Source of the DNA: a virus
DNA: 64,000 bases
Reading direction: 5' to 3' (one strand)
IMG/VR virus record: IMGVR_UViG_3300001683_000016
Span: 1-64,000 of that record
Made by a program: the position numbers and the translations under genes. Shown here piece after piece: positions 40,411 through 61,509 of the stretch. The notes beneath the pieces were generated by a model. That model saw only the letters and a program-made list of their open reading frames with translations. It was not told where the DNA came from and searched no databases. The first letter of the stretch is position 1, and each line of letters starts with the position of its first letter.

Positions 40411-40593
40411 TGCGCTCACTTCCTCGTAGTGTGATTCAGAATAGAGTCCGAGCATGATTTGGTCGCCGTTATCCACGGTGATACCACCATCGGGTTCAAG
40501 GATGGGGCGCGAAAGTTCGTGCTTGTTCCAATCAGGGAAGAGCGCATCGCGTATCATCTCAAACAATTCATCAGGGATGACAATGTCAGTCAT
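40408..40593 (-). CDS. hypothetical protein
   Basis: Coupled to ardC. Confidence 0.55.
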   Translation of the reverse strand: MTDIVIPDELFEMIRDALFPDWNKHELSRPILEPDGGITVDNGDQIMLGLYSESHYEEVSA

Positions 40594-41528
40594 GCGTCCA
40601 CCCCCATGAGGGATTTGAGTATGTAATCTGCGGCTGTCTGAGCACTACTAAACGCTTGACTGAGAGCCTTATCTTTATCTTTACACGCAGCCAACCATGA
40701 CTTAAGGTAGGCTTGACTGTTAGCATTATCCTCAACTACTGAGTCAGGTTTGAACTCTCCGCCTAGTGTGAGTGTCACGATTAACTGCCCCATTTCAGCA
40801 ATCAATTCTTCATAGGCATACTCAGGTGAACCAAAGGCAGACTTGAGTGGCCTCTCAACTCTGTTGACATGACCTGTACTATGAATAGCCTCATGGAATG
40901 CGGTCATTACTTCACCAATAGGTGAGATGAATGATTCATGTGGTGGCATTACAATATCATCTTTCTCTGACGAGTAGTATGCACGTACACCTTTGCGATG
41001 CAGGACAAGTGTATCCTGTGATGCTATGTAATCGTTGAAGTGAACCATCATCTCAGACTCAGGCACTACCTCAACCTCTTCTACATCAGGTGCTACATAA
41101 TCGACACATTGTTCAACACAAAATACAGTGTACCATCGTGTTAGCCATCTGCTGCGTGTCTCTTCTTCTCCGTCATCGTTCTCAACAATGAACTTACTAC
41201 GCTTGAAGAACTGTATGTTCACGCCATCACCATTAGTCAAGCCTTCTATTGAGTAACCTTTGCTTAATAATTGTTTACGAGTAGCAAAACGAAGGTCAGT
41301 CCATCCTCGTACCATACCCTCTATCCATAGTTGTACTATATTTCCACCTCGATATGCTTTCTTGCTAACCAAGTTATGTGGCATACTACCTGTACCACCA
41401 ACCCAAGGCTTGCGCCAAGGTAAGTTGTTGTCCGTTATAGCAGTGCTTAGGTTAGCAAACCATCGCTCTTGATTTTCCTGCTGCTTCATCTCTCCGTATG
41501 CCCTTTTCTGTTCTTTGTTCATTGTCAT
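40590..41528 (-). CDS. ardC: ArdC-like antirestriction protein (ssDNA-binding plus zincin)
   Basis: PWRKPW, YRGGN, T.KQ, VF.VEQ, AYY, HEAIHSTGH, YAYEELIAE, Y..SWL. Confidence 0.9.
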   Translation of the reverse strand: MTMNKEQKRAYGEMKQQENQERWFANLSTAITDNNLPWRKPWVGGTGSMPHNLVSKKAYRGGNIVQLWIEGMVRGWTDLRFATRKQLLSKGYSIEGLTNGDGVNIQFFKRSKFIVENDDGEEETRSRWLTRWYTVFCVEQCVDYVAPDVEEVEVVPESEMMVHFNDYIASQDTLVLHRKGVRAYYSSEKDDIVMPPHESFISPIGEVMTAFHEAIHSTGHVNRVERPLKSAFGSPEYAYEELIAEMGQLIVTLTLGGEFKPDSVVEDNANSQAYLKSWLAACKDKDKALSQAFSSAQTAADYILKSLMGVDA

Positions 41529-43188: not shown

Positions 43189-43304
43189 CTGTCCGAAGAT
43201 TCCGATTATTCGTTTATACGATTAGACAATTGTATTAGTACGGTAGTCTCTCTTCTATATATAATATTCTTAATGTATAGATAATACATTAGACAAGTCG
43301 GAAT
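43189..43304. repeat. palindromic element, copy 2 of 3
   Basis: ctgtccgaagattccgatt...tatataatattcttaatgtatagataatacattaga..gtcggaat; aligns with 55065-55136. Confidence 0.65.
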
Positions 43305-43595
43305 ATTGCTTTCAATTATGTGAATCTGTTCTGTCCTCACGTGTGTATGTGCATATGAGCAGAATCCATACAGACTGTGCAGATTCACGGTGTGTGAATT
43401 GAAACCACCAAAATCAGTAGGCTCGCTTATGTGTGAGTGGACTGGTTGGCTGTCGCTCTCGTAGAAGAAGCAGTTTATTTTCTGAGTAGCACAGACTTAC
43501 CACCCGTATGGTTGGAGAGGATTCCGAGAGATACGCAAGGCGTATTCGAGATAAAGAATCCGAATCCAAGCCACGCGTAACGCTTACGCTAGACC

Positions 43596-43671
43596 AAAAA
43601 AAATGCCCACCCCGCGAGTGCAGGGTGAGCGTAATGGGTGCTGACCCCCTGCGAGTGTACCCGCAGAGGGC
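43596..43671 (-). terminator. double GC hairpin plus T8 tract
   Basis: Minus strand GCCCTCTGCGGGTACACTCGCAGGGGGT and GCTCACCCTGCACTCGCGGGGTGGGC, then ATTTTTTTT; downstream of the 43714-44496 gene. Confidence 0.7.
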
Positions 43672-43713
43672 TTGTGTAATGCTACGAATCTCGTGTACTC
43701 GTGTGCTACTTGT

Positions 43714-44496
43714 TCACGATAGGAACTTAGCCATGTACGCCTTAGCGCCCTTGACTGTGCTTGCTTTGCTACCTAGTTGACGAGCCGCCGCGATGATTGC
43801 GTCGTCTGCACTCATGGCTGCATCACTTGTGATGGTGGTGTCTGCATCCACTTTCACGTATGTGCCTTGATACACGATTGCAAGTGCTAGTCTCTTTGCT
43901 TTCGTTTCTTTGTTCATCTTAAGGGTTGGCTGTCCGGTGTTCCACCAGTTAGCGCCAAAGTTGCATTTCTGAGCGCACCATAACTTTCGTGCTTTCTTCT
44001 CAGATACACATGCTCGACCTGCTCCTTCTTTGTCGGTTACGCCCTCTGCAAACCATACTCCGCCGTCTGCTTGTGCCTTAGCCAAGTCAACCTCACGCTT
44101 TGCGCTTTTGATGGCACGCTTGTCCTCTCTGCGTGCTCTGTTCAACCCGTATGCAAAGACGTTCACTTCGTTGCCTTTGTTCTTGCCACTCGTTAGAATG
44201 TGGGTCAGTTCCATGCCGTGAGCACTAGGTGTAAGACCTGATGCCGGTGACCAACCTGTACCTATGGTAGTTTGGCAAAAGCGTGCTAGTATGGCTAATG
44301 CTTGCTTAGGTGTGAGCGTGGTGTCTGCCACCTTCTCATCGTAGATGGGGTTAGGGTATGCACCTGTTACATCCCATCGCCCTATGCTCACCTTGGCTTT
44401 GCCTTTTCCTTTGCTGACAGCCATTAGGCTGCGCAAGAGCGTGGCAATACGCTCAATCATCGTTGTTTTCGCTACTGTATCATCAGTTGTCGTCAT
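43714..44496 (-). CDS. first gene of the early arm, basic Ala/Lys-rich hypothetical protein
   Basis: Own promoter, GGAGG RBS and terminator; start MTTTDD. Confidence 0.75.
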   Translation of the reverse strand: MTTTDDTVAKTTMIERIATLLRSLMAVSKGKGKAKVSIGRWDVTGAYPNPIYDEKVADTTLTPKQALAILARFCQTTIGTGWSPASGLTPSAHGMELTHILTSGKNKGNEVNVFAYGLNRARREDKRAIKSAKREVDLAKAQADGGVWFAEGVTDKEGAGRACVSEKKARKLWCAQKCNFGANWWNTGQPTLKMNKETKAKRLALAIVYQGTYVKVDADTTITSDAAMSADDAIIAAARQLGSKASTVKGAKAYMAKFLS

Positions 44497-44518
44497 TTCA
44501 GATTCCTCCACACCCTCT

Positions 44519-44543
44519 TTCATTCATTGTTTAAGTAGTCAAT
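44519..44543 (-). promoter_or_regulatory. conserved promoter motif (outermost copy)
   Basis: ATTGACTACTTAAACAATGAATGAA. Confidence 0.8.
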
Positions 44544-44577
44544 GTGGATTGAAGCCAAGAAAGAAAGAAATGGTTAG

Positions 44578-45058
44578 CATTACGCGGGTGTGCATTATGC
44601 AAAGCATTACGCCTTGTGTATAAGAAGAGGCATTTTTGCCCCAACCATACGGGTGGGGAATCCAAAGCGGTGCAAAGGGCTGGCGCTAAAGCGTGCTAAG
44701 TGTGAGGCGCGTTATGCCTAGCAGTACAGCGTTTATAGTGCCGCGACTTAGGTGCTTACGTGCATAGGTAAACGTACAAGCGTTACGCAAGGCGTAACGT
44801 GCGTTAGTCAAGCATTACGCTAGATTAACATGGCATTACGCTAAGAGCGTAATGTCCGACAGGCTCGCAGTACCCCATTACGCTAGAGCATTACGCTGGC
44901 TTAGCCGGAGCATTAGCATTACGCTATTAGCATTACGCTCTTATAGCCACACACAGCGCTTGAGCAAAAAAAATATTTTTGGTAAAAAAGCCCCTGCGTG
45001 TCTCATATATACAACAGTCAAGGTTTTAACATTACGCCAACTAAATATAACATTACGC
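44578..45058. repeat. CATTACGC octamer cluster at the strand switch (candidate origin or packaging/terminus region)
   Basis: 10 direct copies, 1 inverted copy, and an A/T tract at about 44966-44989. Confidence 0.75.
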
Positions 45059-45070
45059 TGTCCGCTAATC

Positions 45071-45451
45071 ATGTCGGCGGCATTCGGTAATGCATGGAAT
45101 GTGCTCAAAGCGTTACCAAATCAGCAAGTTGAGATACCCGGTGCACGATATACTTCTCATGGGCCGCAGCCAGTAAAAACTATGCATCCGGGGATTGCTT
45201 CGTTGTTGGCGAGGAAGCCGGGTGCCAATATACAAAATCCTGATATGATTGATTCGCAAAATATGGAAATGCACATGAGTGGGGAAGAAAGGGGTGGTCC
45301 AGCGCAACTTTGGGACCCCGTTAATGAAAAAATGATAACATTACCTATGAGTGAATCGTCTATGTCTGATGTTCATATGAATGATTATGGCAAAAAGCCA
45401 AATTGGGCGCTTAACTCAGTAGGAAGATTGGCTAACGATGGTCAATCATAA
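45071..45451 (+). CDS. tagged protein (AFGNAWNVLK)
   Basis: ATG at 45071 gives the shared N-terminal tag. Confidence 0.7.
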   Translation: MSAAFGNAWNVLKALPNQQVEIPGARYTSHGPQPVKTMHPGIASLLARKPGANIQNPDMIDSQNMEMHMSGEERGGPAQLWDPVNEKMITLPMSESSMSDVHMNDYGKKPNWALNSVGRLANDGQS

Positions 45452-45539
45452 GGTCCTAGATTCATTGGCGACTCATTTTTGTTCCATGTTAAAGAGTAAC
45501 GGGCGGCAGTTCAAAATAGAGTAACGCTATGTGAGGAGC

Positions 45540-46286
45540 ATGGTGGCAGCGTTCGACCAAGCGTGGGCTTTGCTGAAGGCAGTAGAGTTCGACCCTTATG
45601 CTAAGGACATAAAGGAGGCTCGCCCCTTCAAAGCATATCGTAGTATTCCGACGAAGTTCCTCGATGAGGTGCTTTCCGAAGGCATACAGCCAAGAAGTGT
45701 AGAGCCATGGACGGAAAGGATGCAGAGAAGCGGCCTCAAGCCTGAAACGAGCGCCAGCAAAGCCCATGTTTGGTCACCGAGTGACAAAGGAGTGTGGTCG
45801 TTCATGCATAAAAGAGGTGCTTTACCCAATACCAAAGGGCAACAAGAACTGAGAGAATCATGGCCTTATGCCCCTGTGAGTCATCCTGCTCTGTCTGCGC
45901 GGTATTTTGCTGATAACTTTAGTCGTCGGGCGGCAGAAATAGCAGAGACACCTGAACATATTAAAAGCAAAAAAATGCTTGATGGGGTAAAATCATCATC
46001 GACTATGCCCCCTCAGTCATTTTGGGACGAATATGCGAAACTGAATGACAATCTCCAACACTCGATAGTAGGTTCCACTATATTACCTCCGGGCAAGAGA
46101 TTCGAGGACTTGGATTGGCACAAGGGTCGTGACTATGCGACAAAACCTATACTAACGACAGACCCAATACCAGCGAGATATTTAGATGAGGCTATCCCGT
46201 TAGACTTTCAAGGAAACGAAATCCGTTATACACAAGGTAGTCGCATACCAGATAATTTTCGTAATGAATGGGGGTTTAACGAATGA
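45540..46286 (+). CDS. tagged protein, ADP-ribosyltransferase-like
   Basis: AFDQAWALLK tag; AYRS...VLSEGIQP, GVWSF, DPIPARYL. Confidence 0.5.
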   Translation: MVAAFDQAWALLKAVEFDPYAKDIKEARPFKAYRSIPTKFLDEVLSEGIQPRSVEPWTERMQRSGLKPETSASKAHVWSPSDKGVWSFMHKRGALPNTKGQQELRESWPYAPVSHPALSARYFADNFSRRAAEIAETPEHIKSKKMLDGVKSSSTMPPQSFWDEYAKLNDNLQHSIVGSTILPPGKRFEDLDWHKGRDYATKPILTTDPIPARYLDEAIPLDFQGNEIRYTQGSRIPDNFRNEWGFNE

Positions 46287-46927
46287 ACCCCTTCAACCAA
46301 GCGTGGCTTTTGCTGAAGTCCGAAATGCTGTTGTGGCCCAAACAACTCAACAATTACCGCAGCCCCGACTCTGCCAAGAGCAAGCCTGAATTGAGAATGC
46401 CGGGGCAGTTCAAGAAGCCGAGCGCAGCCGGATTCACTCAATTGTATCAGAAACCCGGTTTGGCTCGTTCATACGTGTCTCTTCCCAATATGGAACAACC
46501 GGGAAGTAGGATTGGTCTGAATAGCACTCTTAATGACCCCGCTATATCGGATAAGGACAAGGCAGGAGTCCAAGGAAGATATGATGAGCGTTTAGCCCAC
46601 AATGTGATGGGAACTGATGTACACGAGGATACGCATGTTGCGATGGATAGGATTGGGGAGACTTCGGACAATCCTTACCACAATGAGTTACCAGCCCACA
46701 TAGCAGAGACGCTTCAATTCACGAGAAGGCCGAGAGAAACGATAAACTCCAATGATGTGGTGCTTCAAGACCTCGATAGCGGCATGTCCCCTACTGAAGT
46801 CGCAGTCAAACGTGGAAAACAAGGAGCGATGATGCATCAACAGGTTAGTGGAACTGGACCCGATAATGGGATGTACACAACTGTAGGGCCGCAGAAGTTC
46901 ACCTATACGGGGGAACAGGGACAATGA
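46283..46927 (+). CDS. tagged protein, zincin metallopeptidase-like
   Basis: MNPFNQAWLLLK tag; HEDTH followed by NELPAH. Confidence 0.55.
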   Translation: MNPFNQAWLLLKSEMLLWPKQLNNYRSPDSAKSKPELRMPGQFKKPSAAGFTQLYQKPGLARSYVSLPNMEQPGSRIGLNSTLNDPAISDKDKAGVQGRYDERLAHNVMGTDVHEDTHVAMDRIGETSDNPYHNELPAHIAETLQFTRRPRETINSNDVVLQDLDSGMSPTEVAVKRGKQGAMMHQQVSGTGPDNGMYTTVGPQKFTYTGEQGQ

Positions 46928-47982
46928 ACCCCTTCGACCAAGCGTGGGTTTTGCTGAAACAAGAAGATAATAGAGATGAGATGATTGAAGGTGCATACCC
47001 TCACGAAACTCATTTGTGCAAACATTGTGGCTATCCCATCTATCACCATTGGCAACAAGGGCAAGGTGATGGAAGTCACCCACCGCAAGAGGTGTGGAGT
47101 GGTGAAGATGATGAAGGCGGAAACTGTTCAAGCCCAAGTGGATTTTGTGAGCCGGGAGAATCTCTCGGTAGGACATATCAAAGTGGTGAACCAATTGAGG
47201 CCACACCCGAATCGCACCCGAATCAAATCTACTTGAATGGGCGATTGGTTGATGCGAATGATTGGACAGACGAGCATGAAGCAGAAGTGAATGCTAACAA
47301 AGACCCGGAATCGGGCCAGCCGCTAGTCAATTGGAATGATACTTGGGATTGGAATAAGGATATTCAAACAGGCGAACCTATGGAAGTCGCTATGCGGTTG
47401 TTGAAGGATGATGACCCTCTGCAACATGTTGGGACATTTCTCAATCAATTAACACCGGATGATACGGGGGTTGAAAGATTAGGCGACCATACTGTTCACT
47501 TTGAAGGATTTACTGATATGTGCAATCTGTCAATCACACCTAATTGCCCTGCTGAACAATTACACCAAGAAGTGTGGGATGACTTTGATAAGCGACAAGG
47601 GCAAGAAGCCATCCATAGAGGTAAATGGGGTACGGAAGAAAACCCTACTATTTATTCTGTATATCATACACCGCAAGATGAGGTCAAAACAGGCGAACCT
47701 ATGGACATCGCCATGCGGTTGTTGAAGGGGCGTAACCTTTCACCAGCAGCACGTAAACACAAGTTGGAATACGATACAAAATACGAGTCTAACCCTAAAA
47801 GGGTCAAATATAGAGTTGACCTGAATCGTGAAAGACGGCGCAGGGGCATCTATGGTTCGGGCAACCGTAAAGATGTGAGTCATACCGAAGGTGGTAAACT
47901 CACCTTAGAAAACGAACACGATAATAGGGCTAGGCACTTTAAGGGTAAAGGCACACTTCGCAGAGTTAAGGTGAAGAAATGA
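46924..47982 (+). CDS. tagged polyprotein (Zn finger / unknown / HNH-like)
   Basis: N-terminal tag plus two internal TGEPMxxAMRLLK; CKHCG; C-terminal DVSH...NRAR. Confidence 0.7.
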   Translation: MNPFDQAWVLLKQEDNRDEMIEGAYPHETHLCKHCGYPIYHHWQQGQGDGSHPPQEVWSGEDDEGGNCSSPSGFCEPGESLGRTYQSGEPIEATPESHPNQIYLNGRLVDANDWTDEHEAEVNANKDPESGQPLVNWNDTWDWNKDIQTGEPMEVAMRLLKDDDPLQHVGTFLNQLTPDDTGVERLGDHTVHFEGFTDMCNLSITPNCPAEQLHQEVWDDFDKRQGQEAIHRGKWGTEENPTIYSVYHTPQDEVKTGEPMDIAMRLLKGRNLSPAARKHKLEYDTKYESNPKRVKYRVDLNRERRRRGIYGSGNRKDVSHTEGGKLTLENEHDNRARHFKGKGTLRRVKVKK

Positions 47983-48476
47983 ACCCCTTCAACCAAGCGT
48001 GGCTTTTGCTGAAGGCACCCATTTATGAAACAGGTATTCCCAACATCAATTTTGTTACACAAGGCCCATTTCCAGACCCTTTTTGGAGGGAAGAGGAAAA
48101 TGTATACGGCTACGTTCCTGATGACCCAAAAGGGAATGCGTATGGCTATTATGATGAAGGAAATGAGGTTGGGGAGATTCAACATATGACACCCGGTGAA
48201 TACGGAAAAATGACTACTGGTGAGGAAAAGGGTGGTATGTATGTTGACGCATTGGGAAGAAAAAAGTCTCCAAGAGAGTCAGATGACACTTTCTATCAAG
48301 AGTTGATGGATAGGGCACAAGCGGGAGAGAACGTCAAGTTCGGTATGCCGTATGTTTTTCCCGATTTTGAGCCTGAAACATATCATGATGGGAGACATAG
48401 AATGGCTGAACTCTTCGCTCGTGGTCATGGTGATACACCCTTACCAGTCAAAGTCATGAGGGGGACTCACGGATGA
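47979..48476 (+). CDS. tagged protein, ParB/Srx-like
   Basis: MNPFNQAWLLLK tag; MTPGEY, HDGRHR...G...LPV. Confidence 0.55.
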   Translation: MNPFNQAWLLLKAPIYETGIPNINFVTQGPFPDPFWREEENVYGYVPDDPKGNAYGYYDEGNEVGEIQHMTPGEYGKMTTGEEKGGMYVDALGRKKSPRESDDTFYQELMDRAQAGENVKFGMPYVFPDFEPETYHDGRHRMAELFARGHGDTPLPVKVMRGTHG

Positions 48477-48946
48477 ACCCCTTTGACCGAGCGTGGGCTT
48501 TGCTCAAACAAGATACGCGTCAAAGTACGTTAGGTGAGTATCATCCTGATTTTCCTTCCCCATATGGCGATGTGAAGTATTACCATGGGACAACAGTAGA
48601 GCCAGCGTCGAGAATTAACTTTGAAGGGTTGAAGCCGACGGAACCTTCCACGCTAGGGTGGAATCGAAAACTAAGTGGAATGTTTCCTAAAGGTGTATAT
48701 GCAACCGATAATAAAGATGTAGCAGCCGATTATGCCCACACGAGAGGGCAAAATAGGAATCAACAGGGTCGAATATTTGGAATAAGGGAAGGGGCACCCC
48801 AACAAGCAAATCCTACAACGCCGTTAACGCCGAATGCGCCCGATAACGTATTTCGATATGACGAAAAAATACCGAGACAGTATCTTACTCCGGTAGATTA
48901 CCCAAGTGAGAAACTTGTCCCATATTTTAGGTACGGAGATGAGTGA
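48473..48946 (+). CDS. tagged protein, ADP-ribosyltransferase (H-Y type, Tpt1/Arr-like)
   Basis: MNPFDRAWALLK tag; YYHGT, I..EGL, GVYAT, A..YA, IPRQYL. Confidence 0.65.
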   Translation: MNPFDRAWALLKQDTRQSTLGEYHPDFPSPYGDVKYYHGTTVEPASRINFEGLKPTEPSTLGWNRKLSGMFPKGVYATDNKDVAADYAHTRGQNRNQQGRIFGIREGAPQQANPTTPLTPNAPDNVFRYDEKIPRQYLTPVDYPSEKLVPYFRYGDE

Positions 48947-49795
48947 ATGAGTGACTTCTCCATTTACGAAGTTGGTCCACGCGACGGTCTACAGAGCGCC
49001 GACACAATAACATCAACATATGACAAAGTAACCCTGATACGAAAAATTGCTAAGGCCGGTATCAAAAATATCGAAGTTGGCTCAATGGTCAATCCTGACA
49101 GAGTTCCTAATATGGCCGATAGCGATGTGGTTTTTCTCAAGGTTCAAGATTTAGCGCCTGAGCACAATCTCGGTGTCTTAGTGCCTAATCGCAGGGGAGT
49201 TGAGAGAGGAAAGGCTGTAGGTGTGGAAAAGTTCAATATTTTTTTCTCGCCGTCCAACTTTTTCAATGTCAATAACTTCGGAAAGAGCCTAAATACGATT
49301 TTTGCTGAATATTGTGGTGCATTAGACGGAATCCGACCCGAAAACGTTAGAGTATACCTTTCTACAGCCTTTGGATGTCCCATAATAGGTGAAATACCGC
49401 AAGAAGATATGTTAAAAACCATGGAATGGGCTAATACGCTGGGTGATACTATCGTTTTGTCTGATACAATTGGCAATGCTAACCCGTCCTTAATTCGTAA
49501 AGTGATGCGTTTAACTGACAGAAAAATAGATGCTAAGATAGCACTACATCTACATCATGGATTTAGAGAGGGTAGAATGTATGATAACTTGTCTGCTGGC
49601 TTTGATTGTGGGATAACTCAGTTCGATTCAAGCATTGGTGGGATGGGCGGATGTCCGTTTATACCGGGTTCAGGGGGCAATTTAGCCACTGAACAATTAG
49701 TACGCTGGGGTAGTAAAGAGAATCTTGATTGTGGTGTTACGATTAAAGATTTAGAACCGCTAATGAAGTTTGTAAATACTAGAATAAAAGTATAG
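48947..49795 (+). CDS. hmgL: hydroxymethylglutaryl-CoA lyase (DRE-TIM)
   Basis: EVGPRDGLQ, VPNMAD, AFGCP, DTIG, HLH, GGCPF..G..GNLATE. Confidence 0.92.
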   Translation: MSDFSIYEVGPRDGLQSADTITSTYDKVTLIRKIAKAGIKNIEVGSMVNPDRVPNMADSDVVFLKVQDLAPEHNLGVLVPNRRGVERGKAVGVEKFNIFFSPSNFFNVNNFGKSLNTIFAEYCGALDGIRPENVRVYLSTAFGCPIIGEIPQEDMLKTMEWANTLGDTIVLSDTIGNANPSLIRKVMRLTDRKIDAKIALHLHHGFREGRMYDNLSAGFDCGITQFDSSIGGMGGCPFIPGSGGNLATEQLVRWGSKENLDCGVTIKDLEPLMKFVNTRIKV

Positions 49796-49807
49796 CGTTA
49801 ATAGCAA

Positions 49808-50629
49808 TCATGCTACGGCGACCTGCCCGCCAGTTCCTGTACTGGCTTTTGCTCGACCTGCTGATGACAAATCTTCAATTCTTTTCATTTCGGCTTGTTG
49901 TTTGGCTTGATTTTGCTGTTTATGCTGTTCTAGTTGATTAAAACCGTATGCGCCTGTTGCTGACGCTACGCCAATTGGAGTGTTAGTTTTTTGACTATCG
50001 TCGTAATTTTTCTGCGCATCTTGCAATTTTTCATTCATTTTATCGCTTTGTGATTGAGCGGCATTGACATTTTGTTGAGCGATATTTTCGGTTTCATAAG
50101 CATCCATTACTTCGGGTGTAAAAGAGGTTTGACCAGTATCAAAGCCTGTACCTTCTGTTAGTTTGGTAGTTTCCATACTCGGTGTTTCTGTCGCTGCATC
50201 TTCTGCTCTTTGTGATAATTGTCCAAACGGATTATTTTCACCCGATTGAGATTCAAAGCCTGTACCACCATATTGTGTTAAGTCTGCATCTTCACCGGGC
50301 AAATCCGCAAATCTTTTCTTTGCTGCTCCACTTTTATAATTAGGACCGCGAGAATAGGAAACACGCCCTGCTTGTCCAGTCGTCATTGATGCTGTTTGTG
50401 CAGCCTTACTTGCATCGCGTGCAGCCTTCAAACCTTTCCCCGCTTGCGCTGCTTTTCTCCCAGCCAATAATGCTCTACCACCTTGAACTCCGACCATAGC
50501 ACCTCTTGCCGCAGCACCTGCTGCTAGTGAAGCGCCACCCGTAAAAGGTGCAGCCAGTATAGAGGCTGCTGTTAATGCAGTTCCTAATTTACCTTTCACC
50601 ACTAAAACAGAAGGTGTGGCGGCTCCCAT
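49808..50629 (-). CDS. Ala/Gly-rich protein with hydrophobic N-terminal segment
   Basis: Lone minus-strand gene in the plus arm; AAPFTGGASLA segment; start MGAATPSVLVVKG. Confidence 0.65.
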   Translation of the reverse strand: MGAATPSVLVVKGKLGTALTAASILAAPFTGGASLAAGAAARGAMVGVQGGRALLAGRKAAQAGKGLKAARDASKAAQTASMTTGQAGRVSYSRGPNYKSGAAKKRFADLPGEDADLTQYGGTGFESQSGENNPFGQLSQRAEDAATETPSMETTKLTEGTGFDTGQTSFTPEVMDAYETENIAQQNVNAAQSQSDKMNEKLQDAQKNYDDSQKTNTPIGVASATGAYGFNQLEQHKQQNQAKQQAEMKRIEDLSSAGRAKASTGTGGQVAVA

Positions 50630-50789
50630 ACTCCCACCTGTATTGCGGTGATGATGAGTGGTATGGAAAGAAGAAGTTGCAACAACTTGAACCTGCGGAA
50701 AGGGAACCACCACGAATACAGCACGAAGCGTAACATATTAGAAGTATCGCACTAGTAGAGAAGGTGTTAGCAGTACGGCGGAGAGCAAA

Positions 50790-51053
50790 ATGAAACCAAT
50801 AGATGCAGCAATAAAACTTCTAAAATCTACCCCTTCTTCTCAAGTCGCTATGCAACACGATATGCCTTCTTACATGGAAGAAGCGCTAAATCAAAGCGGT
50901 AAAACTCGTTCTGATAGCCGAAAAAAGAAAGACAAGGCTACAAAGTTACGTCAAAAAATAGACGACCATGAAGAAGATTCGCAAATAATTGATTTCTATA
51001 GACAGAATCACCCTGAGTGGTTTGATTCATTTAGAGGTGGCGAAGGTGAGTAA
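50790..51053 (+). CDS. tagged small protein (PIDAAIKLLK)
   Basis: Tag variant at the N-terminus. Confidence 0.65.
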   Translation: MKPIDAAIKLLKSTPSSQVAMQHDMPSYMEEALNQSGKTRSDSRKKKDKATKLRQKIDDHEEDSQIIDFYRQNHPEWFDSFRGGEGE

Positions 51054-51579
51054 ATTGAATAAAAGACCAAAGAAAGGTGTTGCAGTAGTTATTAGCATCG
51101 GTCCTAAAATGAAAACTAAGCCAACGGATGCTGCTACTCCTGAAATGCCAATAAAGAAGTATGGTTCAATGCCAATGAAAAAGGCAATGGCTGTTCTAAA
51201 ACAAAGGGGTAAATATGTACCCACAACTGCTGAAGATGAATATGTTGCATCAAATTCTGAAAATCGACATCATCCTATGAGTAATAGAGAAAAGGATGAG
51301 GCGTGGAAAGAGGCGCAGTTAGATGGAAGATATGATGAAGATTACTATCCCGATGAGGATGAAACACCTATATGGAATGATAATCGACAACCAATCGGTA
51401 AACCTGAGTTTGGTAATGAAGGTGCACGTGAAGCAGAAATGAATCAAGCAGAGCGTGCTGCAATAATGGCAGAAGGTATGCCTGAGGGGCGTAGACCTCG
51501 TATTCCACCTCGAACAGAAGGTTTTGACCCTAATAAGCAAGGTCGAGTGCCAAGAGATATTTTTCAAAATAGAAGGTAA
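51046..51579 (+). CDS. protein with internal tag variant (PMKKAMAVLK)
   Basis: GTG start overlapping the upstream stop. Confidence 0.6.
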   Translation: MSKLNKRPKKGVAVVISIGPKMKTKPTDAATPEMPIKKYGSMPMKKAMAVLKQRGKYVPTTAEDEYVASNSENRHHPMSNREKDEAWKEAQLDGRYDEDYYPDEDETPIWNDNRQPIGKPEFGNEGAREAEMNQAERAAIMAEGMPEGRRPRIPPRTEGFDPNKQGRVPRDIFQNRR

Positions 51580-51583
51580 GTGA

Positions 51584-51811
51584 ATGAGTGCTTTCACAAA
51601 ATCTTGGCTATTTCTCAAAACCGAGCCAATTGATATGCAGCAAGGCTCAGATGGAACTTGGCGTGCACCTCAGGAAGATATAACACCAGAAAAAAAATTG
51701 TGGCAACAAATCCAAGCAAGAAACGCACAGGCTAGGCAAAACTTGCAGAAACCTGCACAAGTAGCACAACCTAAACCTACACCACAACCGGGGTATTCAG
51801 GATGGATGTAA
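51584..51811 (+). CDS. tagged small protein (AFTKSWLFLK)
   Basis: Tag variant. Confidence 0.65.
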   Translation: MSAFTKSWLFLKTEPIDMQQGSDGTWRAPQEDITPEKKLWQQIQARNAQARQNLQKPAQVAQPKPTPQPGYSGWM

Positions 51812-51812
51812 A

Positions 51813-54695
51813 ATGGTATTCAATAAATCTTGGAACTATTTGAAATCAATAAGCGATTGGTCGTCTACTGATAGTTTATATGGTAATGAGTATGAAGATG
51901 AACCTAGTATAGAAAGAAGAAATACTCCAACTATGGATAACTCGTATCAAAAAATCTTACCTCAAGATGACCCAAGATTAGATTATAGAACTGGTTGGAA
52001 AGGTGTAGAACCCGTTAGGGCTATTCGTGTACAATCAAATCATCGAAAGGCAGGTCAACCCGTACCTCAAGACGGCTCTAATATAAATTATGAACAAGGT
52101 GACCCAAAGTTACCGCCAAAGATTCCTGAGATACCTGATGACGATGACCCTGTTTGGGATGACCCCGACTCACGATGGAGTAAAGACCCCAAATCGGGTT
52201 CAAGATATTATATGTCGGGTAAATATGAAGATGGTAAGTATATTTCTCGTAAAAACAAGCATTTTGTTGATTTGAAAAATGCAAAGGCTGGAACTTGGGC
52301 TGCAAACAATACTGTTGGGGATATTAATAATTTATATACTCATAACCAACCTGATAAGTTGGTCTATATTCGTGGGAGTCCCGATAAATATGGTAAAGTA
52401 CACAGAAGGGATAGTGACGAAGCGGATGAAGGTTTAGCAGAAATGTTTATCGAACATAAAAAAGATATTTCACCTGAAAACCTTGTTGAAGTACCGTTAA
52501 AGACTCATTATAGAAACCAAACAAAAGATATGGGTACTCCTGACCTTGGGCATAATAGACGCTCAAAAAGTGATAAAAGCGGGCGAGTTAGTCGTTGGAG
52601 TGATAAACCTGTACCTTGGGGCTACAGCCACAAGAAAAAGGGCGAACCAATGGACATAGCCTTCCAGTTGCTCAAGATGTCTGCTGATGAAGCAGATGAG
52701 TTGGAAGAGCAAATGCTTTCTGATATGGAAAGAGGGACCAGTAATCCACGCTCACGAAGAAAACAGCGAAGTATGGGCGAAAGGGAATCAAAGGCATCTA
52801 TCCATAATTTTCCCGGTTCATCATCTCGTAGAGAAATGTGGGATGAAAAGCAGAAAGAAAGAGACTGGGAACGATGGGGAAAGAGACATGCTGAAGATAA
52901 AGCAATTGCAGGAAAAGACCTACCCTCATATCATGGGTTTGGTAGCGATAGGCTAAGAGAAATCCATCCGGGTGATAGAGGGAACGATTTCTCATCTATG
53001 AAACCGGGAAAATATGAGTTTGACGGTGTAGGTAGGGAAGAAAGACCCATACCTTTTGAGCCGGGTGATAACCTTATGGAGTGGTTACAGCCCGGATACA
53101 ACGAATCTAACAACCTAAGACTATTCAGGGATAAGGATGACTCTAAACATGAGTGGCAACCAAAACCGTGGACAACAAGTGGCCCTATCAATCATGTTCC
53201 CGAAACCCAAGAATGGGTAAACAACCCTTTTGATGAAGAACCAACTTTTCACGGGATACCATTCAATGAAGATACGGGTTTCACAACAGGTGAACCAATG
53301 GACATAGCCTTCCAGTTGCTCAAGGGAAAGACAAGGCAATCTACTCTTTGGGGTTACGACCCAAAAATGGTAGAGAACTTACTCGCAGAAGATAACAGTA
53401 ATATTTTCATCGCCGCTAAACCCGGAAACGATGATATGCCCGATGATGAACAAAATGAGCGTTCGGATAAAATGCTACAAGACCTCGCCGCACTCAAAGA
53501 GGAACATGGTCACTTCGATATAACCAGTGCCACAGGTAGAGCGCAGTGGGACGCAGAACCATCTTTCATGCTCACTAACGTGCCTGATAGTGCAAGGGAT
53601 TCCATTAATGAGATAGCGGAAAGATACGGTCAGGAATCCATGGGAATCTCGGAAAAGGGGGAGAAAGGGGTGAACTACGTTACACCGGAGGGGGAGGTAA
53701 AGGACAAGTTCAGTAGTATGGAGATGCAGGAAAAACCGGAGTACTCTACAGATTTTCCGAGTAGTCAGAGGCTGGCTTTTACGGGTTGGCAGGAAGCAAA
53801 TAAGGCTAATCCAATGCACATAGCCTTCCAGTTGCTCAAGGGTTGGGCAGGTGGTGTTAGAGGTATAGGTAATAATGCCACGGACAACATTTATCATTAT
53901 CCACACGAATTAGATTACGGCGCGATAGACGAATATATGGGTGAGAATCCTGATGCTACTCTCGGTAGTATGGTAACGCCGTATCTACAAGGACAGTTTA
54001 CAAATAATCCTCCTCTCTTTCCAGAATTAAGCACAAATCCGCCAACCTATCAAAGTGAAAGACCTACTCAATTACAAAGCACAGTTCCGGCACCTTTTCC
54101 ACAAACCCCCGAACAATCTAAAGGTGTTCAAAATCTCATTGATGATGGATTTGAAAACTATGAATCTAGAGATAGAACGAGAAAACCCCATTACGATAGC
54201 ATGAATAATGCAGTCAGAGTATTATCTAGAAATTTAAGAAGAAACCCTGCATACAATTTTACGCCGCCGGGACGATTACGAGGCACTAAGGGACAGGGCG
54301 GTAGAAGTAGGCAAATGCAGAACATGAAACTAAGAAGTTTGTTAGATACTCCTGTATCTCAAAGTATGGCAGAGATGAACATACCGAAACAAGGAATACC
54401 AATTGCGGCAGGCGAACCAATGAACATAGCCTTCCAATTGCTCAAAGAGCGCAAGTCACCAGCAGCATTTGCTCACAAGTTAGAGTATGACAAGCAATAT
54501 CAAAAGACACCTAAGCGCGTAAAGTACCGTGAGCAATTAAACGCAGAGCGTAGGAAGCGTGGCATATACGGTAAGGGTGGTGCGGATGTTAGCCACACAC
54601 AAGGTGGTAAACTCACTCTTGAAAGCGCACATGCTAATAGAGCAAGACATTTCAAAAACAAAGGCACTCTCCGCAGGGTCAAGGTGAAAAAATGA
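51813..54695 (+). CDS. tagged five-segment polyprotein (ART-like / unknown / SAM-lyase-like / unknown / HNH-like)
   Basis: N-terminal FNKSWNYLK; internal PMxIAFQLLK at 52641, 53289, 53811 and 54411. Confidence 0.8.
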   Translation: MVFNKSWNYLKSISDWSSTDSLYGNEYEDEPSIERRNTPTMDNSYQKILPQDDPRLDYRTGWKGVEPVRAIRVQSNHRKAGQPVPQDGSNINYEQGDPKLPPKIPEIPDDDDPVWDDPDSRWSKDPKSGSRYYMSGKYEDGKYISRKNKHFVDLKNAKAGTWAANNTVGDINNLYTHNQPDKLVYIRGSPDKYGKVHRRDSDEADEGLAEMFIEHKKDISPENLVEVPLKTHYRNQTKDMGTPDLGHNRRSKSDKSGRVSRWSDKPVPWGYSHKKKGEPMDIAFQLLKMSADEADELEEQMLSDMERGTSNPRSRRKQRSMGERESKASIHNFPGSSSRREMWDEKQKERDWERWGKRHAEDKAIAGKDLPSYHGFGSDRLREIHPGDRGNDFSSMKPGKYEFDGVGREERPIPFEPGDNLMEWLQPGYNESNNLRLFRDKDDSKHEWQPKPWTTSGPINHVPETQEWVNNPFDEEPTFHGIPFNEDTGFTTGEPMDIAFQLLKGKTRQSTLWGYDPKMVENLLAEDNSNIFIAAKPGNDDMPDDEQNERSDKMLQDLAALKEEHGHFDITSATGRAQWDAEPSFMLTNVPDSARDSINEIAERYGQESMGISEKGEKGVNYVTPEGEVKDKFSSMEMQEKPEYSTDFPSSQRLAFTGWQEANKANPMHIAFQLLKGWAGGVRGIGNNATDNIYHYPHELDYGAIDEYMGENPDATLGSMVTPYLQGQFTNNPPLFPELSTNPPTYQSERPTQLQSTVPAPFPQTPEQSKGVQNLIDDGFENYESRDRTRKPHYDSMNNAVRVLSRNLRRNPAYNFTPPGRLRGTKGQGGRSRQMQNMKLRSLLDTPVSQSMAEMNIPKQGIPIAAGEPMNIAFQLLKERKSPAAFAHKLEYDKQYQKTPKRVKYREQLNAERRKRGIYGKGGADVSHTQGGKLTLESAHANRARHFKNKGTLRRVKVKK

Positions 54696-55063
54696 GTAAT
54701 TATCCGTCATACCCAACGACACCTCCTAAAAAATGTGAATATTGTAATGGTGCTGGAATTATTGACCCTTATGGTGATGAAGAGGATGTGGCTCAGGCTG
54801 ACCCAAGATATCCACATGAAACATGTTGGAAGTGCAAAGGAACAGGTATACAGACAGAATGGTCATTTAACCCATATATGCCTTCTTTCCACCCCCCTTC
54901 TTTCCCCCCCCCTTCTTTCCACCCCCCTTCTTACCACGCCCCTCCCCCGTCCAAAATGGAATTAGGAGAGCCAACAATTAATTTTGACCCTGAATGGCAA
55001 GAAATGAATAAAAGTTCTAGTGTTGCATTTTCATTAGCGTGGAACTTACTTAAATCAGAATAA
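54692..55063 (+). CDS. Zn-finger/Pro-repeat protein with C-terminal tag (AFSLAWNLLK)
   Basis: CEYCNGAG, CWKCKGTG; PSFHP repeats. Confidence 0.65.
   Translation: MSNYPSYPTTPPKKCEYCNGAGIIDPYGDEEDVAQADPRYPHETCWKCKGTGIQTEWSFNPYMPSFHPPSFPPPSFHPPSYHAPPPSKMELGEPTINFDPEWQEMNKSSSVAFSLAWNLLKSE
54881..54937 (+). repeat. 15-bp tandem repeat with poly-C (PSFHP, about 4 units)
   Basis: ccttctttccacccc units. Confidence 0.8.
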
Positions 55064-55064
55064 A

Positions 55065-55148
55065 CTGTCCGATAATTCCGATTGTACGTCTATACAAATA
55101 TACATAATATTACTTGTATATAGACAATACATTAGATTATTCGGACAG
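55065..55148. repeat. palindromic element, copy 3 of 3
   Basis: CTGTCCGA..TGTA.GTCTATA...TATAGAC..TACA..TCGGACAG, followed by a TATA-like AACCCTTAAG. Confidence 0.8.
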
Positions 55149-55195
55149 CCAACCCTTAAGATGACCCCCACTGTGGGCTAACACGAGGTCACAGC

Positions 55196-55852
55196 ATGAG
55201 CAGAGATGTAGGGGATACAAACGAAATGAAAATGACAGGGTTGATTTTATCTCAATCGGCCTTAGTTGGATTAGCAATAGGAGTATATAGTTCGGGTTTA
55301 TGGATGCCCGCAGGTTCAAGTGCAAGTTCAACAATAGATGGTATGACTTATGCGATGGGTGCGCTTGCAGTTCAAACAATAGCATATTATTTGTTTAAGA
55401 TGTTCTTTGAACAGTCTATGAAAGAGAAAGTGGAAGTTGCAGAATTACAAAGAAACAGGCAGAATATGTATAGACAGCAGCAAATGGGCTTTGACCAACG
55501 TAGAGTAGATTTAGAATTGAGACAAATGGAACTGCAATTAGAAAACGAATTACGTATGATGCATGAAGACCCTAACAGAGTATTAGATAATAATTTTAAT
55601 AGCGGTGCAGTTAGTGCTGGTGTTCAAGGTGACTATCATAATACCTTCAACCCCGGACTTGTACCTGTGCATGGTGCAAAAAATGAGGTACCAATGAATC
55701 TTGGACTTACTAGTACACAGGAAGCAGTTGACTCAATGGCTCACTCCAATTTACCGCCACGCAGTTTACCTATACCGCCAAGAGACGGACAACCTACAAC
55801 ACAGCGTTTGAAGAAAGATGGTACGCCGGATTTAAGATATAGAGCATCGTGA
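55196..55852 (+). CDS. membrane protein (2 TM plus coiled coil)
   Basis: Two hydrophobic segments, Q/E-rich coil, C-terminal LKKDGTPDLRY. Confidence 0.7.
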   Translation: MSRDVGDTNEMKMTGLILSQSALVGLAIGVYSSGLWMPAGSSASSTIDGMTYAMGALAVQTIAYYLFKMFFEQSMKEKVEVAELQRNRQNMYRQQQMGFDQRRVDLELRQMELQLENELRMMHEDPNRVLDNNFNSGAVSAGVQGDYHNTFNPGLVPVHGAKNEVPMNLGLTSTQEAVDSMAHSNLPPRSLPIPPRDGQPTTQRLKKDGTPDLRYRAS

Positions 55853-55863
55853 GGTAGACCGAT

Positions 55864-56151
55864 ATGGTACTACCCGGACAACTAATTCCCTCTCCGTTGC
55901 GTATATTTCGTAATATTGGTGATGATTCGGTCGAAGAAACTCTTAGAGCAATGCATTTAGCAAATACTGTAGATAATACTTATGAATGGGGACTTGGTTG
56001 GATTAGAACAATAGTCGTATCTATTGTTGCTGTTATGTCTGTGTCTGCTATGGAAGCGAACTCAGATTGGAATCTTTGGGAATTAACAGTAGAATGGTGG
56101 TATCAAAAAGTAGCAGATTTTGGTTCTTGGATTACTAATAAGTTTAGTTGA
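55864..56151 (+). CDS. small membrane protein
   Basis: IRTIVVSIVAVMSVSAM segment and Trp-rich amphipathic tail. Confidence 0.65.
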   Translation: MVLPGQLIPSPLRIFRNIGDDSVEETLRAMHLANTVDNTYEWGLGWIRTIVVSIVAVMSVSAMEANSDWNLWELTVEWWYQKVADFGSWITNKFS

Positions 56152-56162
56152 GTTGATGCTTA

Positions 56163-56879: not shown

Positions 56880-56922
56880 CCTCAAAAGTGACCTTTTTAA
56901 TGTGGTAGGGTGTGGGAACGAC

Positions 56923-57102: not shown

Positions 57103-57107
57103 TATAT

Positions 57108-58995: not shown

Positions 58996-59031
58996 GCAAG
59001 GCTGATTAACCATATGGTATTCGGGTTATAT

Positions 59032-60116: not shown

Positions 60117-61509
60117 GCCAGTAAAGATTTTGAAGTCAGGTATGACTAGTACTGGTAGCGATACTCGTATGTATGGACCGAGAAGTGAATCCTCTCACAT
60201 GTTCCATGGTAATCACGAAGATGAAGGGGATGTTTACGGTGGAGAAGGGGGTGAATATCGTGATGCAAGAATTGACCGCAAAAAGAAAGAACGTAAAGAA
60301 AGAGAATCTGAAATGAAGAAGTTAAGACATATTTCAGTAACTACAGCAGATTTACCTCCTGAAGATGAGGAAGAAAAAGATAAAGACTTAGAACCGACAA
60401 AATTCGATAATGAACTTGAGCCTTCTTTAATGACCGGTACTCCGGGTAATTTTGGTGCTATGACTAGTATGGCTAATCAAGCAAGGGGGCCGGGTTTTGC
60501 CGGTGGGCATAATTTTGCTATGGGAGAACCAATGAATATAGCGTTCCAGTTATTGAAAGGCGGGAGAGCCGGTTTTATAGGTAAAAAACCAAAGAGGGCG
60601 AAGGGTGCTAAAGCAGCAAGAGCGCATAAAGAAAGGCAGAAGAAATGGAGGCCATCTACTGGTGAGTTCAAAAGGCCGCCGGGTGGTATGACACCGGCTA
60701 GTGCTACATCTAGAAGAGCAAAGGCAAGAATGCGAGGTATTGCCGGTAGCAAGAAAACAGGGTTAGGTAGAGCACATCTTGCTGTCGAAATGTCTCACAG
60801 AGGTGTAAAAACTAAACAGCCTATGTCGAAAGATGTAAAGAGATATAGACAATACCTAGGACAGTCTGAAGCAAGAAAGCGTTTAGGTAACATACGAACT
60901 ATTTCTTCTACACCTTCTAGATTTGGTGCACGTTCATACAAAGCGGGGTTAACTGGCGGTGGTACACTACAAAGTCTACTCCCCGGACAAGCCCAACAAA
61001 TGAGAAGACCATCACTTAGGTCAATTAGACCTCCACCGTTAATGCCACCTTCTGCACCTAGTAGAGCCACTTTACCTTCACCTTCCATACCGAGTCCTCC
61101 TGTAATGTCCCAACCAAGAATGGGAGTTGGGGTGCAAAGCATGTCCAACCAAAGTCCAACTTATAGACCTAAGTTACCTAGTTCTTCAATACAAGGTGCA
61201 CCTGTAATGACTGGTGAGATTGGAGAAGGTAGTGAACTACAAAAAAGGGGACTATCATACTATGACACCACAGAATTAAGACAATTACTCCTTGATGCTA
61301 AAAGAGCCTTGAACCGTAAAGAGAATAAGAAAAAGGGTAAAGGAGAGAGAAGTACAGATGCTGCTAGTCATTTACCCGCCCATACAGAAGCAGGCCCGAA
61401 ACAGACCACAAGACCTGAAGGCGCTACAGAAGATGCAAATAATGAGCCTCGCACATTTGGTATTAATCCTCTAGACCATCTTACAAGTAGAGGCGGTAGA
61501 ACACCTTGA
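60109..61509 (+). CDS. acidic/basic low-complexity protein with internal tag (GEPMNIAFQLLK)
   Basis: Tag at 60523-60558 separates an acidic segment from an R/K-rich segment. Confidence 0.75.
   Translation: MSKPVKILKSGMTSTGSDTRMYGPRSESSHMFHGNHEDEGDVYGGEGGEYRDARIDRKKKERKERESEMKKLRHISVTTADLPPEDEEEKDKDLEPTKFDNELEPSLMTGTPGNFGAMTSMANQARGPGFAGGHNFAMGEPMNIAFQLLKGGRAGFIGKKPKRAKGAKAARAHKERQKKWRPSTGEFKRPPGGMTPASATSRRAKARMRGIAGSKKTGLGRAHLAVEMSHRGVKTKQPMSKDVKRYRQYLGQSEARKRLGNIRTISSTPSRFGARSYKAGLTGGGTLQSLLPGQAQQMRRPSLRSIRPPPLMPPSAPSRATLPSPSIPSPPVMSQPRMGVGVQSMSNQSPTYRPKLPSSSIQGAPVMTGEIGEGSELQKRGLSYYDTTELRQLLLDAKRALNRKENKKKGKGERSTDAASHLPAHTEAGPKQTTRPEGATEDANNEPRTFGINPLDHLTSRGGRTP

Follow-up and report, generated by a model that had tools for sequence, protein, structure and literature searches.

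The internal-protein (IP) loci of T-even phages are described as encoding unrelated small proteins with a common short N-terminal leader (CTS) that directs them to the head, and these proteins as being injected as anti-defence factors (PMC3012670, PMC12373910). In T4-type phages, PeSL shuffling has been outlined by Arbiol et al. 2010 (PMC2839356) and Comeau et al. 2014 (PMC4122927); according to the former account, plastic regions contain variable ORFs flanked by a short repeated motif, made up of a non-coding promoter and a stem-loop, that bounds indels and replacements between close relatives; exchange proceeds by the general recombination machinery without an integrase, and the authors themselves liken the system to integrons. 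For Rhs/CDI orphan cassettes, Koskiniemi et al. 2014 (PMC3967940) report that a conserved coding stretch before variable domains permits their swapping by homologous recombination, and their account includes an immunity gene per toxin and a large delivery protein that carries the domain. Integrons hold unrelated, independently mobile ORFs in promoter-proximal arrays with seamless junctions. The T-even IP loci and their CTS-coding DNA were reportedly also the subject of work by Repoila et al. in 1994.

Magroviruses rank among the most abundant archaeal viruses in the surface ocean, and we know of no culture of either these viruses or their hosts. They are presented as tailed viruses of Marine Group II archaea that encode a halovirus-like head module, PolB, a clamp loader and a chaperonin, with an SNF2 helicase in group A (PMC5434244). 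The words recombination, cassette and hypervariable are absent from the main text of the magrovirus papers examined. We analysed a stretch of 64,000 nucleotides (the window), positions 1 to 64,000 of IMG/VR record IMGVR_UViG_3300001683_000016, which is the 115.5-kb genome of a tailed archaeal virus from the ocean. By its gene content the virus is of magrovirus type, combining a halovirus-like head module with PolB, a clamp loader and a chaperonin, and its host assignment is putative. The major capsid protein has 31-34% identity to its counterparts in haloarchaeal tailed viruses only, and the replication genes are of the archaeal type. The genes for an S78 prohead protease (75967-77334), the major capsid protein, the portal and the terminase lie downstream of the locus described below, on the same strand.

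First-pass annotation of the window had recorded a 36-nt repeat at the head of each gene in an array at 45-49 kb. The exact identity that it reported for two copies (46283-46318 and 47979-48014) is correct over 36/36 nt; its description of two further copies as near-identical suits the one at 46924-46959 (3 mismatches) and overstates the one at 48473 (7 mismatches, 29/36). The partial copy that it placed at 45552 corresponds to the last 27 nt, with only 3 mismatches, of a copy at 45543-45578 that has 9 mismatches overall. No match to the 36-mer appeared in dinucleotide-preserving shuffles (0/100). The preceding ORFs end at 46286, 46927, 47982 and 48476, so that all four full copies indeed overlap the previous stop codon as ATGA. 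Synonymous positions are also conserved, as had been claimed: among degenerate codons that specify the same residue, 10/10 are identical between 46283 and 47979, 7/8 at 46924, 6/6 at 45543 and 4/7 at 48473. Given the codon usage of the cargo, independent encoding of the peptide would arrive at the exact codon choice with a chance of about 1e-6.

A PSSM scan placed the five array copies in a family of 18 twelve-codon tags at 45074-60558 on the + strand (Table 1), and no tag was found at the same score on the - strand of the window. The tags are located at gene starts, at joints between modules within two long proteins and at the end of one protein, and the encoded peptide of 12 residues has a gene-start consensus like MNPFxQAWxLLK and an in-frame linker form, GEPMDIAFQLLK. 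At the DNA level, the gene-start tags, the two linkers of the 352-aa ORF and the four linkers of the 960-aa ORF constitute subfamilies. The tagged array is GC-rich (44-52% vs 40%).

Table 1. Tags, tagged ORFs and the bordering gene in the window
Feature	Position	Strand	Score or match
Diverged tag copy, close to where the first tagged ORF probably starts (within ORF 44852-45451)	45074..45109	+	PSSM 25.6
Tag heading 251-aa cassette (ORF 45531/45540-46286)	45543..45578	+	
Exact tag heading 214-aa cassette (ORF 46283-46927); ATGA overlap	46283..46318	+	
Tag (3 mismatches) heading 352-aa three-module protein (ORF 46924-47982)	46924..46959	+	
In-frame linker tag within the 352-aa ORF	47371..47406	+	
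In-frame linker tag ahead of the conserved 82-aa C-terminal module (phrog_6437)	47692..47727	+	
Exact tag heading 165-aa cassette (ORF 47979-48476)	47979..48014	+	
Tag (7 mismatches) heading 157-aa ADP-ribosyltransferase-like cassette (ORF 48473-48946)	48473..48508	+	
HMG-CoA-lyase-like gene without a tag, bordering the first array on the right	48947..49795	+	Pfam HMGL-like, E 1.5e-25
Four tags at or near gene starts (50790, 51166, 51584, 51810), their codons ordinary and AT-rich	50790..51845	+	
960-aa five-module ORF; linker tags at 52641, 53289, 53805 and 54411	51813..54695	+	
C-terminal tag of 123-aa ORF 54692-55063; 2 residues after the tag	55019..55054	+	
Linker tag within ORF 60088-61509	60523..60558	+	

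The nearest precedent is the T-even IP locus together with PeSL shuffling. As in the IP loci, otherwise unrelated small proteins carry one short leader (18 tags in the window, 411 in 81 records), the number, order and identity of the genes vary among relatives, contrary to a fixed arrangement, and a prohead protease is present, although tag-directed encapsidation and cleavage are putative here. The locus differs from the IP loci in that it belongs to an archaeal virus with an HK97/S78-type head module that shows no homology to the T-even group in its capsid and replication genes, and in that its tag is found in further positions, joining the modules of multi-module proteins in frame and standing at a C-terminus; the tag peptide is presumably unrelated to the T4 CTS. 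With PeSL it shares the short repeat that bounds variable ORFs and the lack of a detected integrase. However, the T-even swap elements are given as promoter plus stem-loop (PMC2839356), while the likely swap point here is the tag-coding DNA itself, a translated repeat of 36 nt that keeps frame and tag and also occurs inside ORFs. PeSL mini-circles are reported to have been demonstrated by inverse PCR, whereas the present system is known from assembled contigs. The likeness to polymorphic-toxin arrays drawn by the first-pass annotation is valid as to the logic, in which conserved coding DNA acts as the swap point, and fails for membership, there being neither immunity genes nor a large delivery domain: the tagged ORFs at 45531-48946 abut by ATGA overlap with no genes between them, no Rhs/CdiA-like large carrier was found among the ORFs scanned, and the Rhs homology is given as 522 bp at 95% (PMC3967940) compared with 36 nt here. 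The array resembles integrons in the features listed above and differs from them in having a coding, direct repeat instead of an attC site and in that no integrase was found.

In the closest relative, R277 (loci L010/L021), the segment 45549-46317 is matched at 99.1% identity (cargo alone, 702/704), homology stops at 46317 and restarts exactly at the tag start 48473, and one unrelated 159-aa cassette stands in place of the three cassettes at 46318-48472. Neighbouring modules of the 960-aa ORF are 74%, 478/480, 90.7% and 249/249 identical in R277, with the steps at tags, and the 204-aa module between two tags (52677-53288) is missing from it. The 3' part of tag 45543 matches without difference the tag that this cargo carries in R277, and the 5' part of tag 45543 belongs to an upstream promoter-side context common to R676 and R759. 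Elsewhere, contigs L158/L131 match the 165-aa cassette and the tags on either side of it at 91%, the match being limited to the interval from 47978 to 48502-48508, and blastn matches to the 82-aa module in six metagenome contigs begin at 47686-47693 and stop at 48002-48014. Relatives have additional cassettes at the site of tag 55019; at that of tag 60523 they have either one more module, of 151 aa, or a longer one of 472 aa.

Relatives, all of them metagenome assemblies, were sought with the HMG-CoA-lyase-like gene as anchor; the 269-aa gene on the left flank retrieved none when used in the same way. The survey set of 81 records (1.31 Mb) contains 411 tags on the coding strand vs 9 on the other strand. 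No tags were found in the distant ArdC-anchored loci L017-L020, nor, even at low score, in HVTV-1 (35-80 kb), which is the closest relative in culture as judged by the capsid protein, and within the genomes examined the tag system seems to be restricted to the magrovirus clade. The 411 tags sort into 322 types of junction. Several downstream partners occur for 38 of 250 upstream contexts and several upstream partners for 45 of 252 cargo starts, and one upstream gene end leads through its tag to six different cargos. The cargo families behind the tags are unrelated by blastp.

The two halves of the tag follow different neighbours. Tag pairs with only the upstream context in common mismatch at 0.153 in nt 1-18 (0.305 in the matched background) and remain near background in nt 19-36 (0.236 vs 0.276); pairs with only the cargo in common mismatch at 0.176 and 0.123 in the two halves, against 0.301 and 0.288. 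The crossing pattern recurs in linker tags, persists in ATGA-type tags alone and has p of about 0.002 for each tag type when cluster labels are permuted; the context clusters (70% over 45 nt, single linkage) depend on thresholds of our choosing, and tag pairs are not independent. Tags of one record, especially those less than 1.2 kb apart, are more alike than tags of different records (9.2 and 7.8 vs 12.2 and 11.8 mismatches/36; permutation p 0.001), which could partly reflect a lineage-specific tag preference. Gene-start and linker tags are mixed in 0/88 multi-member cargo-start clusters and in 5/76 strict protein families, and their DNA families are nearly separate exchange pools.

The tags favour codons that are rare in the cargo (CCC, GCG and CTC make up 16%, 16% and 10% of their codon families there). 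One exact 24-mer encodes 17/24 of the MNPF[DN]QAW tags, before 15 different cargo starts in 13 records, and was found in 93 metagenome stretches; among 80 of these, 75 cargos of at least 40 aa fall into 36 blastp families. Tag codons 9-10 vary freely. Synonymous divergence in tag and cargo, a contrast to which the first-pass annotation had drawn attention, is about equal at orthologous junctions (129/1046 codon differences in tags vs 165/1390 in cargo), yet identical rare-codon DNA stands before unrelated cargo, and this combination is better explained by exchange or conversion than by purifying selection at the nucleotide level.

Comparison of the assembled records demonstrates that relatives differ in cassette content, that the junctions lie at or in tags, and that tag DNA is alike beyond what the peptide requires. 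We consider it probable that the tag DNA is a short portable homology patch and that general recombination between tags swaps the cassettes; the homology-driven crossover and the enzymes acting in it are inferred from the comparative patterns. The virus places the tag before, between and behind unrelated modules just upstream of the head-assembly genes; the peptide probably targets these proteins to the head as it forms and marks a cut site. Since near-identical 36-nt sequences stand at the borders of every module, the DNA could double as a homology patch, and recombination from tag to tag, in a single genome or between related viruses that infect the same cell, would delete, insert, replace or reorder cassettes. 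Such exchange would always leave the reading frame, start codon and tag intact, as well as the overlap of stop and start, and together with gene conversion it would keep the tags alike at synonymous sites. The suggestion of the first-pass annotation that the repeats act as anchors for the gain, loss and swapping of cassettes is supported by the content of the relatives and by their breakpoints at tags.

The position of the breakpoints, however, does not by itself prove a homology-driven crossover, because modules need tags and selection therefore enriches junctions there. In tag-bearing regions, 77/333 unbridged blastn match ends have a tag no more than 6 nt away in each of the two genomes, vs 6.3% of positions; the other 256/333 lie away from tags in one or both genomes, for example at stops before untagged genes or within diverged cargo. 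If any kind of recombination moved the cassettes and only products joined at tags survived, the identity of the tag DNA would be non-causal, and the survivors' junctions would have to be at tags, which bound every module. A single-pair change-point model is compatible with junctions exactly at the tag edges (posterior mass 6-12%, close to the prior of 5.4%). A stretch of 36 nt at 80-100% identity is short for homologous recombination to work efficiently, and no viral recombinase was identified; Rad51/RadA and RecT had no match in the 115.5-kb genome. Survival of tag-joined products alone is nevertheless an unlikely explanation in our judgement, as it does not account for identical rare-codon DNA before unrelated cargo when synonymous drift at orthologous junctions is normal, for a 5' tag part that tracks the upstream neighbour and a 3' part that tracks the cargo, or for the excess likeness of neighbouring tags and the near separation of two DNA dialects.

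We regard as quite improbable that the tag DNA or RNA is kept for re-initiation at ATGA or for an RNA structure, with shuffling incidental. The tag codons are non-random, TGA occupies nt 2-4 in 105/124 gene-start tags, and in 60/105 of these it ends an upstream frame open for at least 19 codons; but linker tags, which start no gene, have their own DNA-level conservation with rare codons, tag codons 9-10 are free to vary, and the synonymous divergence of tags is not below that of cargo.

The seamless junctions and integron-like cassette architecture, and a LAGLIDADG/HNH-like ORF at 66114-67256, would suit an integron-like or homing enzyme that recognises the tag DNA and moves cassettes. Such a site-specific system is very improbable: tyrosine integrase and serine recombinase gave 0 matches in the 115.5-kb genome (for PF00589, 0 matches in the complete record with controls 14/14), the junction position varies within the tag with no single fixed point, and the conserved 82-aa module has no nuclease match in Pfam or PDB. 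Returning to recombination between tags, it is conceivable, as a more speculative extension, that the tag DNA has evolved as an integrase-free 'coding attachment site', its 36 nt keeping effector modules for delivery by the head, pooled across the ocean, exchangeable among magroviruses. The two DNA dialects (gene-start with ATGA overlap, and in-frame linker) would then have the same peptide function and separate pools, and frequent conversion, or else selection for proficient recombination, would have left its footprint in the GC-rich rare codons and GC-rich array.

Read as a locus of tag-mediated exchange, this array would indicate a way for such a virus to keep its payload, probably head-packaged and host-directed, renewed without a dedicated recombinase, and one short sequence would serve twice, the peptide labelling the cargo and the DNA making it swappable in frame. 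The tag may thereby offer a handle for mining new effector domains, namely anything behind a tag, and the tag rule a testable basis for designing exchangeable cargo. The ADP-ribosyltransferase-like 157-aa cassette gave sub-threshold matches only (Pfam E 0.013; cholix toxin, exotoxin A and PARP in the PDB at a profile E of 0.08), and the 165-aa cassette family had no PDB match. The 82-aa C-terminal module was considered as a candidate small HNH motif, but profile searches gave no PDB or Pfam match.

That assemblers fused strains at common 24-36-nt repeats into false cassette orders is scarcely credible, even though several strains occur together in the same samples and Logan unitigs break at tags, since the repeats are shorter than reads and usual final k-mers, records of different metagenomes have the same junction sets (L027/L028, L036/L037, L049/L050), and contigs of independent sequencing runs span 4/5 array junctions (45543, 46283, 46924, 47979) with zero differences, so that the array is not an assembly chimera of a single record. 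Because unitigs break at repeats, contig ends at tags carry no evidential weight; loose contig ends were seen at 47689 and 47726 in run X8. No skip joints were found in the contigs of four sequencing runs, which are short and whose unitigs break at repeats. One back-joint, from 55117 to 50018, was observed in run X7.

The 36-nt repeat encodes a 12-residue peptide, here called the tag, which stands at gene starts, as an in-frame linker or at C-termini, and bounds protein-coding cassettes whose contents we call cargo. The first-pass annotation had reported identical copies at 46283 and 47979, which are exact 36-nt matches that 0 of 100 shuffles reproduced, and near-identical ones at 46924 and 48473, a description that suits 46924 (3 mismatches) but not 48473 (7 mismatches). 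The partial copy at 45552 was also recovered, as a repeat copy from 45543 with 9 mismatches, just 3 of them in the last 27 nt. At all four full copies the ATG of the ORF indeed overlaps the TGA that closes the ORF before it (ATGA), and the noted conservation of synonymous positions extends to 10/10 degenerate codons between the 46283 and 47979 copies; with cargo codon usage as the model, the probability of encoding the peptide independently with exactly these codons is about 1e-6. A scan of the window with a position-specific score matrix derived from window coordinates places 18 tags of 12 codons each on the + strand, at 45074-60558 and with gene-start tags among them, and 0 on the - strand at equal score. 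On the - strand, the N-terminus of the replication-side ORF 19748-20416 is weakly tag-like (score 13.1).

The IMG/VR record, of which the window forms the first 64 kb, is 115,554 bp long and rated complete. Its first 41.5 kb carry on the - strand genes for a Cpn60/thermosome-type chaperonin, a family-B DNA polymerase, an RFC-like clamp loader, a PD-(D/E)XK nuclease, an SNF2 helicase and an ArdC-metallopeptidase protein, and from 44.8 kb on the tagged genes, followed by the head-module genes, lie on the + strand. The major capsid protein is 31-34% identical to capsid proteins of haloarchaeal tailed viruses, with no closer match in the phage collection searched. This context, including the haloarchaeal-type capsid protein, agrees with the parts of the account of magroviruses by Philosof et al. 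used here (PMC5434244).

Features of the tagged arrays and their surroundings, in positions of the IMG/VR record
Feature	Position	Strand	Remark
ArdC-zincin metallopeptidase gene	40593-41528	-	ArdC N-terminal domain fused to polyvalent-protein-type zincin metallopeptidase
82-aa module (phrog_6437)	47728-47979, 54447-54692		conserved; always last in multi-module proteins
HMG-CoA-lyase-like gene	48947-49795		Pfam E 1.5e-25; untagged, between the two tagged arrays
In-frame linker tags	2 inside 352-aa ORF	+	score-matrix scan
In-frame linker tags	4 inside 960-aa ORF	+	score-matrix scan
C-terminal tag	55019	+	score-matrix scan
Linker tag	inside ORF 60088-61509	+	score-matrix scan; precedes 316-aa module
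Terminase	64540-66033	+	
LAGLIDADG/HNH-like ORF	66114-67256		between terminase and portal genes
Portal	67258-69006	+	
S78 prohead protease	75967-77334	+	
HK97-type major capsid protein	77364-78533	+	

Comparison with the closest relative, R277, revealed cassette replacement bounded by tags. The two genomes are 99.1% identical over 45549-46317 (cargo alone 702/704), and the following 2.2 kb, comprising three cassettes, are replaced in R277 by one unrelated 159-aa cassette, after which homology returns precisely at base 1 of the 48473 tag. The array tags of the window and R277 are identical at 32/36 and 31/36 positions, below the identity of the cargo to their left, and the two array tags of R277 are mutually identical, like the 46283 and 47979 copies. 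Within the 960-aa ORF, neighbouring modules share 74%, 99.6% (478/480), 90.7% and 100% (249/249) with R277, the 82-aa module being the same at 249/249 nt, and a 204-aa module between two tags is missing from R277.

Further relatives, all of them assemblies, were collected by anchor gene: 4 loci with the HMG-CoA-lyase-like gene, 7 with the ArdC gene and 80 (of 113) with the 218-aa gene at 55196. Gene order and content are not fixed, as shuffling would entail, and more distant relatives share these cargo families but order them differently, at two array sites: one before the lyase gene, the other flanked by the long ORF and the 218-aa gene. Behind one conserved upstream gene end, the tag leads into six different cargos. 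ORF 60088-61509 is conserved, and relatives either insert a 151-aa module in it or have a 472-aa module matching the SAM-lyase-like module of the 960-aa ORF. Breakpoints fall at the repeats in metagenome contigs as well as in R277: matches to the window run from tag to tag in two contigs (47978-48508 in L158, 47978-48502 in L131), and in six others they begin at 47686-47693 and stop at 48002-48014. Unbridged blastn matches end at most 6 nt from a tag in both genomes in 77/333 cases, compared with 6.3% of positions. Among contigs of sequencing runs placed on the window, no recombination events were seen in reads; in run X7, a single contig leads from 55117 back to 50018, with 30 different letters at the join.

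In 81 records (1.31 Mb), the coding strand holds 411 tags, of which 17 are C-terminal, and the opposite strand 9. Mini-ORFs of the tag alone (ATG, tag, two residues, stop) occur at L022:9827 and L042:2084, at an array end or in an array interior, and could represent empty cassettes or else landing pads. Classed by the 45 nt that flank them on each side, the 408 usable tags gave 322 junction types; 38/250 upstream contexts are joined to two or more downstream partners, and 45/252 cargo starts to two or more upstream partners. We then compared tags with one neighbour in common with unrelated tag pairs of the same two records, scoring each tag half separately.

Mismatch fractions in the two halves of the tag (background in brackets)
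Tags	Neighbour in common	nt 1-18	nt 19-36
Gene-start	upstream context alone	0.153 (0.305)	0.236 (0.276)
Gene-start	cargo alone	0.176 (0.301)	0.123 (0.288)
Linker	upstream context alone	0.161 (0.297)	0.254 (0.309)
Linker	cargo alone	0.287 (0.335)	0.202 (0.316)

The interaction between tag half and neighbour has a permutation p of about 0.002 for gene-start and for linker tags, with pairs that are non-independent and thresholds of our own choice, and it persists with ATGA-type tags alone. This mismatch pattern implies that the tag is divided between both sides of the junction. Judged from these alignments, the junction position is not fixed at either edge of the tag; in single examples divergence begins after nt 15, nt 27 or nt 35. 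A per-pair change-point model for junction position added nothing.

The identity of tag DNA, as read from its codons, is greater than the peptide requires. Codons favoured in tags (CCC, GCG, CTC) are rare in cargo. In the anchor-based set, 17/24 MNPF[DN]QAW tags have one exact 24-mer, which precedes 15 different cargo starts across 13 records. The same 24-mer recurs in 93 metagenome stretches and 13 viral contigs. In 80 of the metagenome stretches, 86 distinct contexts begin with it, and the 75 cargos of at least 40 aa behind it belong to 36 blastp families, a count that is conditioned on the 24-mer and gauges breadth, not frequency. Such identity could reflect selection at the nucleotide level, and the proposed comparison of synonymous divergence in tag and cargo bears on this: across 103 orthologous junction pairs (first 15 cargo codons, sum of four identity bins), synonymous differences are equally frequent in tag (129/1046 codons) and cargo (165/1390), which argues that nucleotide-level selection does not hold the tag DNA. 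Identical tags before unrelated cargo instead fit recent common descent via exchange or conversion. Two further patterns also fit this origin: tags are more alike within a record than between records, neighbours especially, and the gene-start and linker DNA dialects are nearly separate pools, being mixed in 0/88 cargo-start clusters and 5/76 strict protein families. The 43300-49000 stretch has a GC content of 44-52%, compared with 40% for the genome, and array tags have 50% with rare GC-ending codons; the GC-rich stretch is possibly a footprint of foreign origin or of biased conversion.

The suggestion that the repeats serve as homology anchors for cassette swapping thus gains support from the tag-bounded swaps and the half-tag pattern, from which the crossover itself is inferred. 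Searches of the 115,554-bp genome for a tyrosine integrase, serine recombinase, Rad51/RadA or RecT found none. The most likely mechanism would be general homologous recombination or copy-choice acting between tags, either in one genome or in co-infecting relatives, with recombination functions supplied by the host or by unrecognised viral proteins. Because tags occupy N-terminal, internal and C-terminal positions next to a co-oriented head module with an S78 protease, we infer that the tag may be a head-loading and cleavage label.

The closest precedents, as far as the portions of the cited papers drawn on here describe them, are PeSL-mediated shuffling (PMC2839356, PMC4122927) and, in T-even phages, the variable loci of internal proteins that bear a capsid targeting sequence (PMC3012670, PMC12373910, PMC2839356). 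A looser analogue is the recombination of Rhs orphan toxins, where the homology spans 522 bp (PMC3967940) versus 36 nt. The present case, in an archaeal virus, differs in that the repeat itself codes for the tag, spans just 36 nt and serves inside ORFs as well as at gene starts. The words recombination, cassette and hypervariable are absent from the main text of the magrovirus papers compared.

Signals for cargo identity are few. The 48473 cassette has a weak ADP-ribosyltransferase-like signal (Pfam E 0.013; PDB profile E 0.08), and all 44 PDB profile matches listed are toxin-type ADP-ribosyltransferases or PARPs; the 960-aa ORF has a weak DUF3293/SAM-lyase signal. The 82-aa module had 0 matches in Pfam or PDB, which leaves a suspected HNH-like motif in it unsupported. 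The HMG-CoA-lyase-like gene is kept in 4 relatives (68-97%), and the ArdC-zincin gene that adjoins the arrays is anti-restriction-like.
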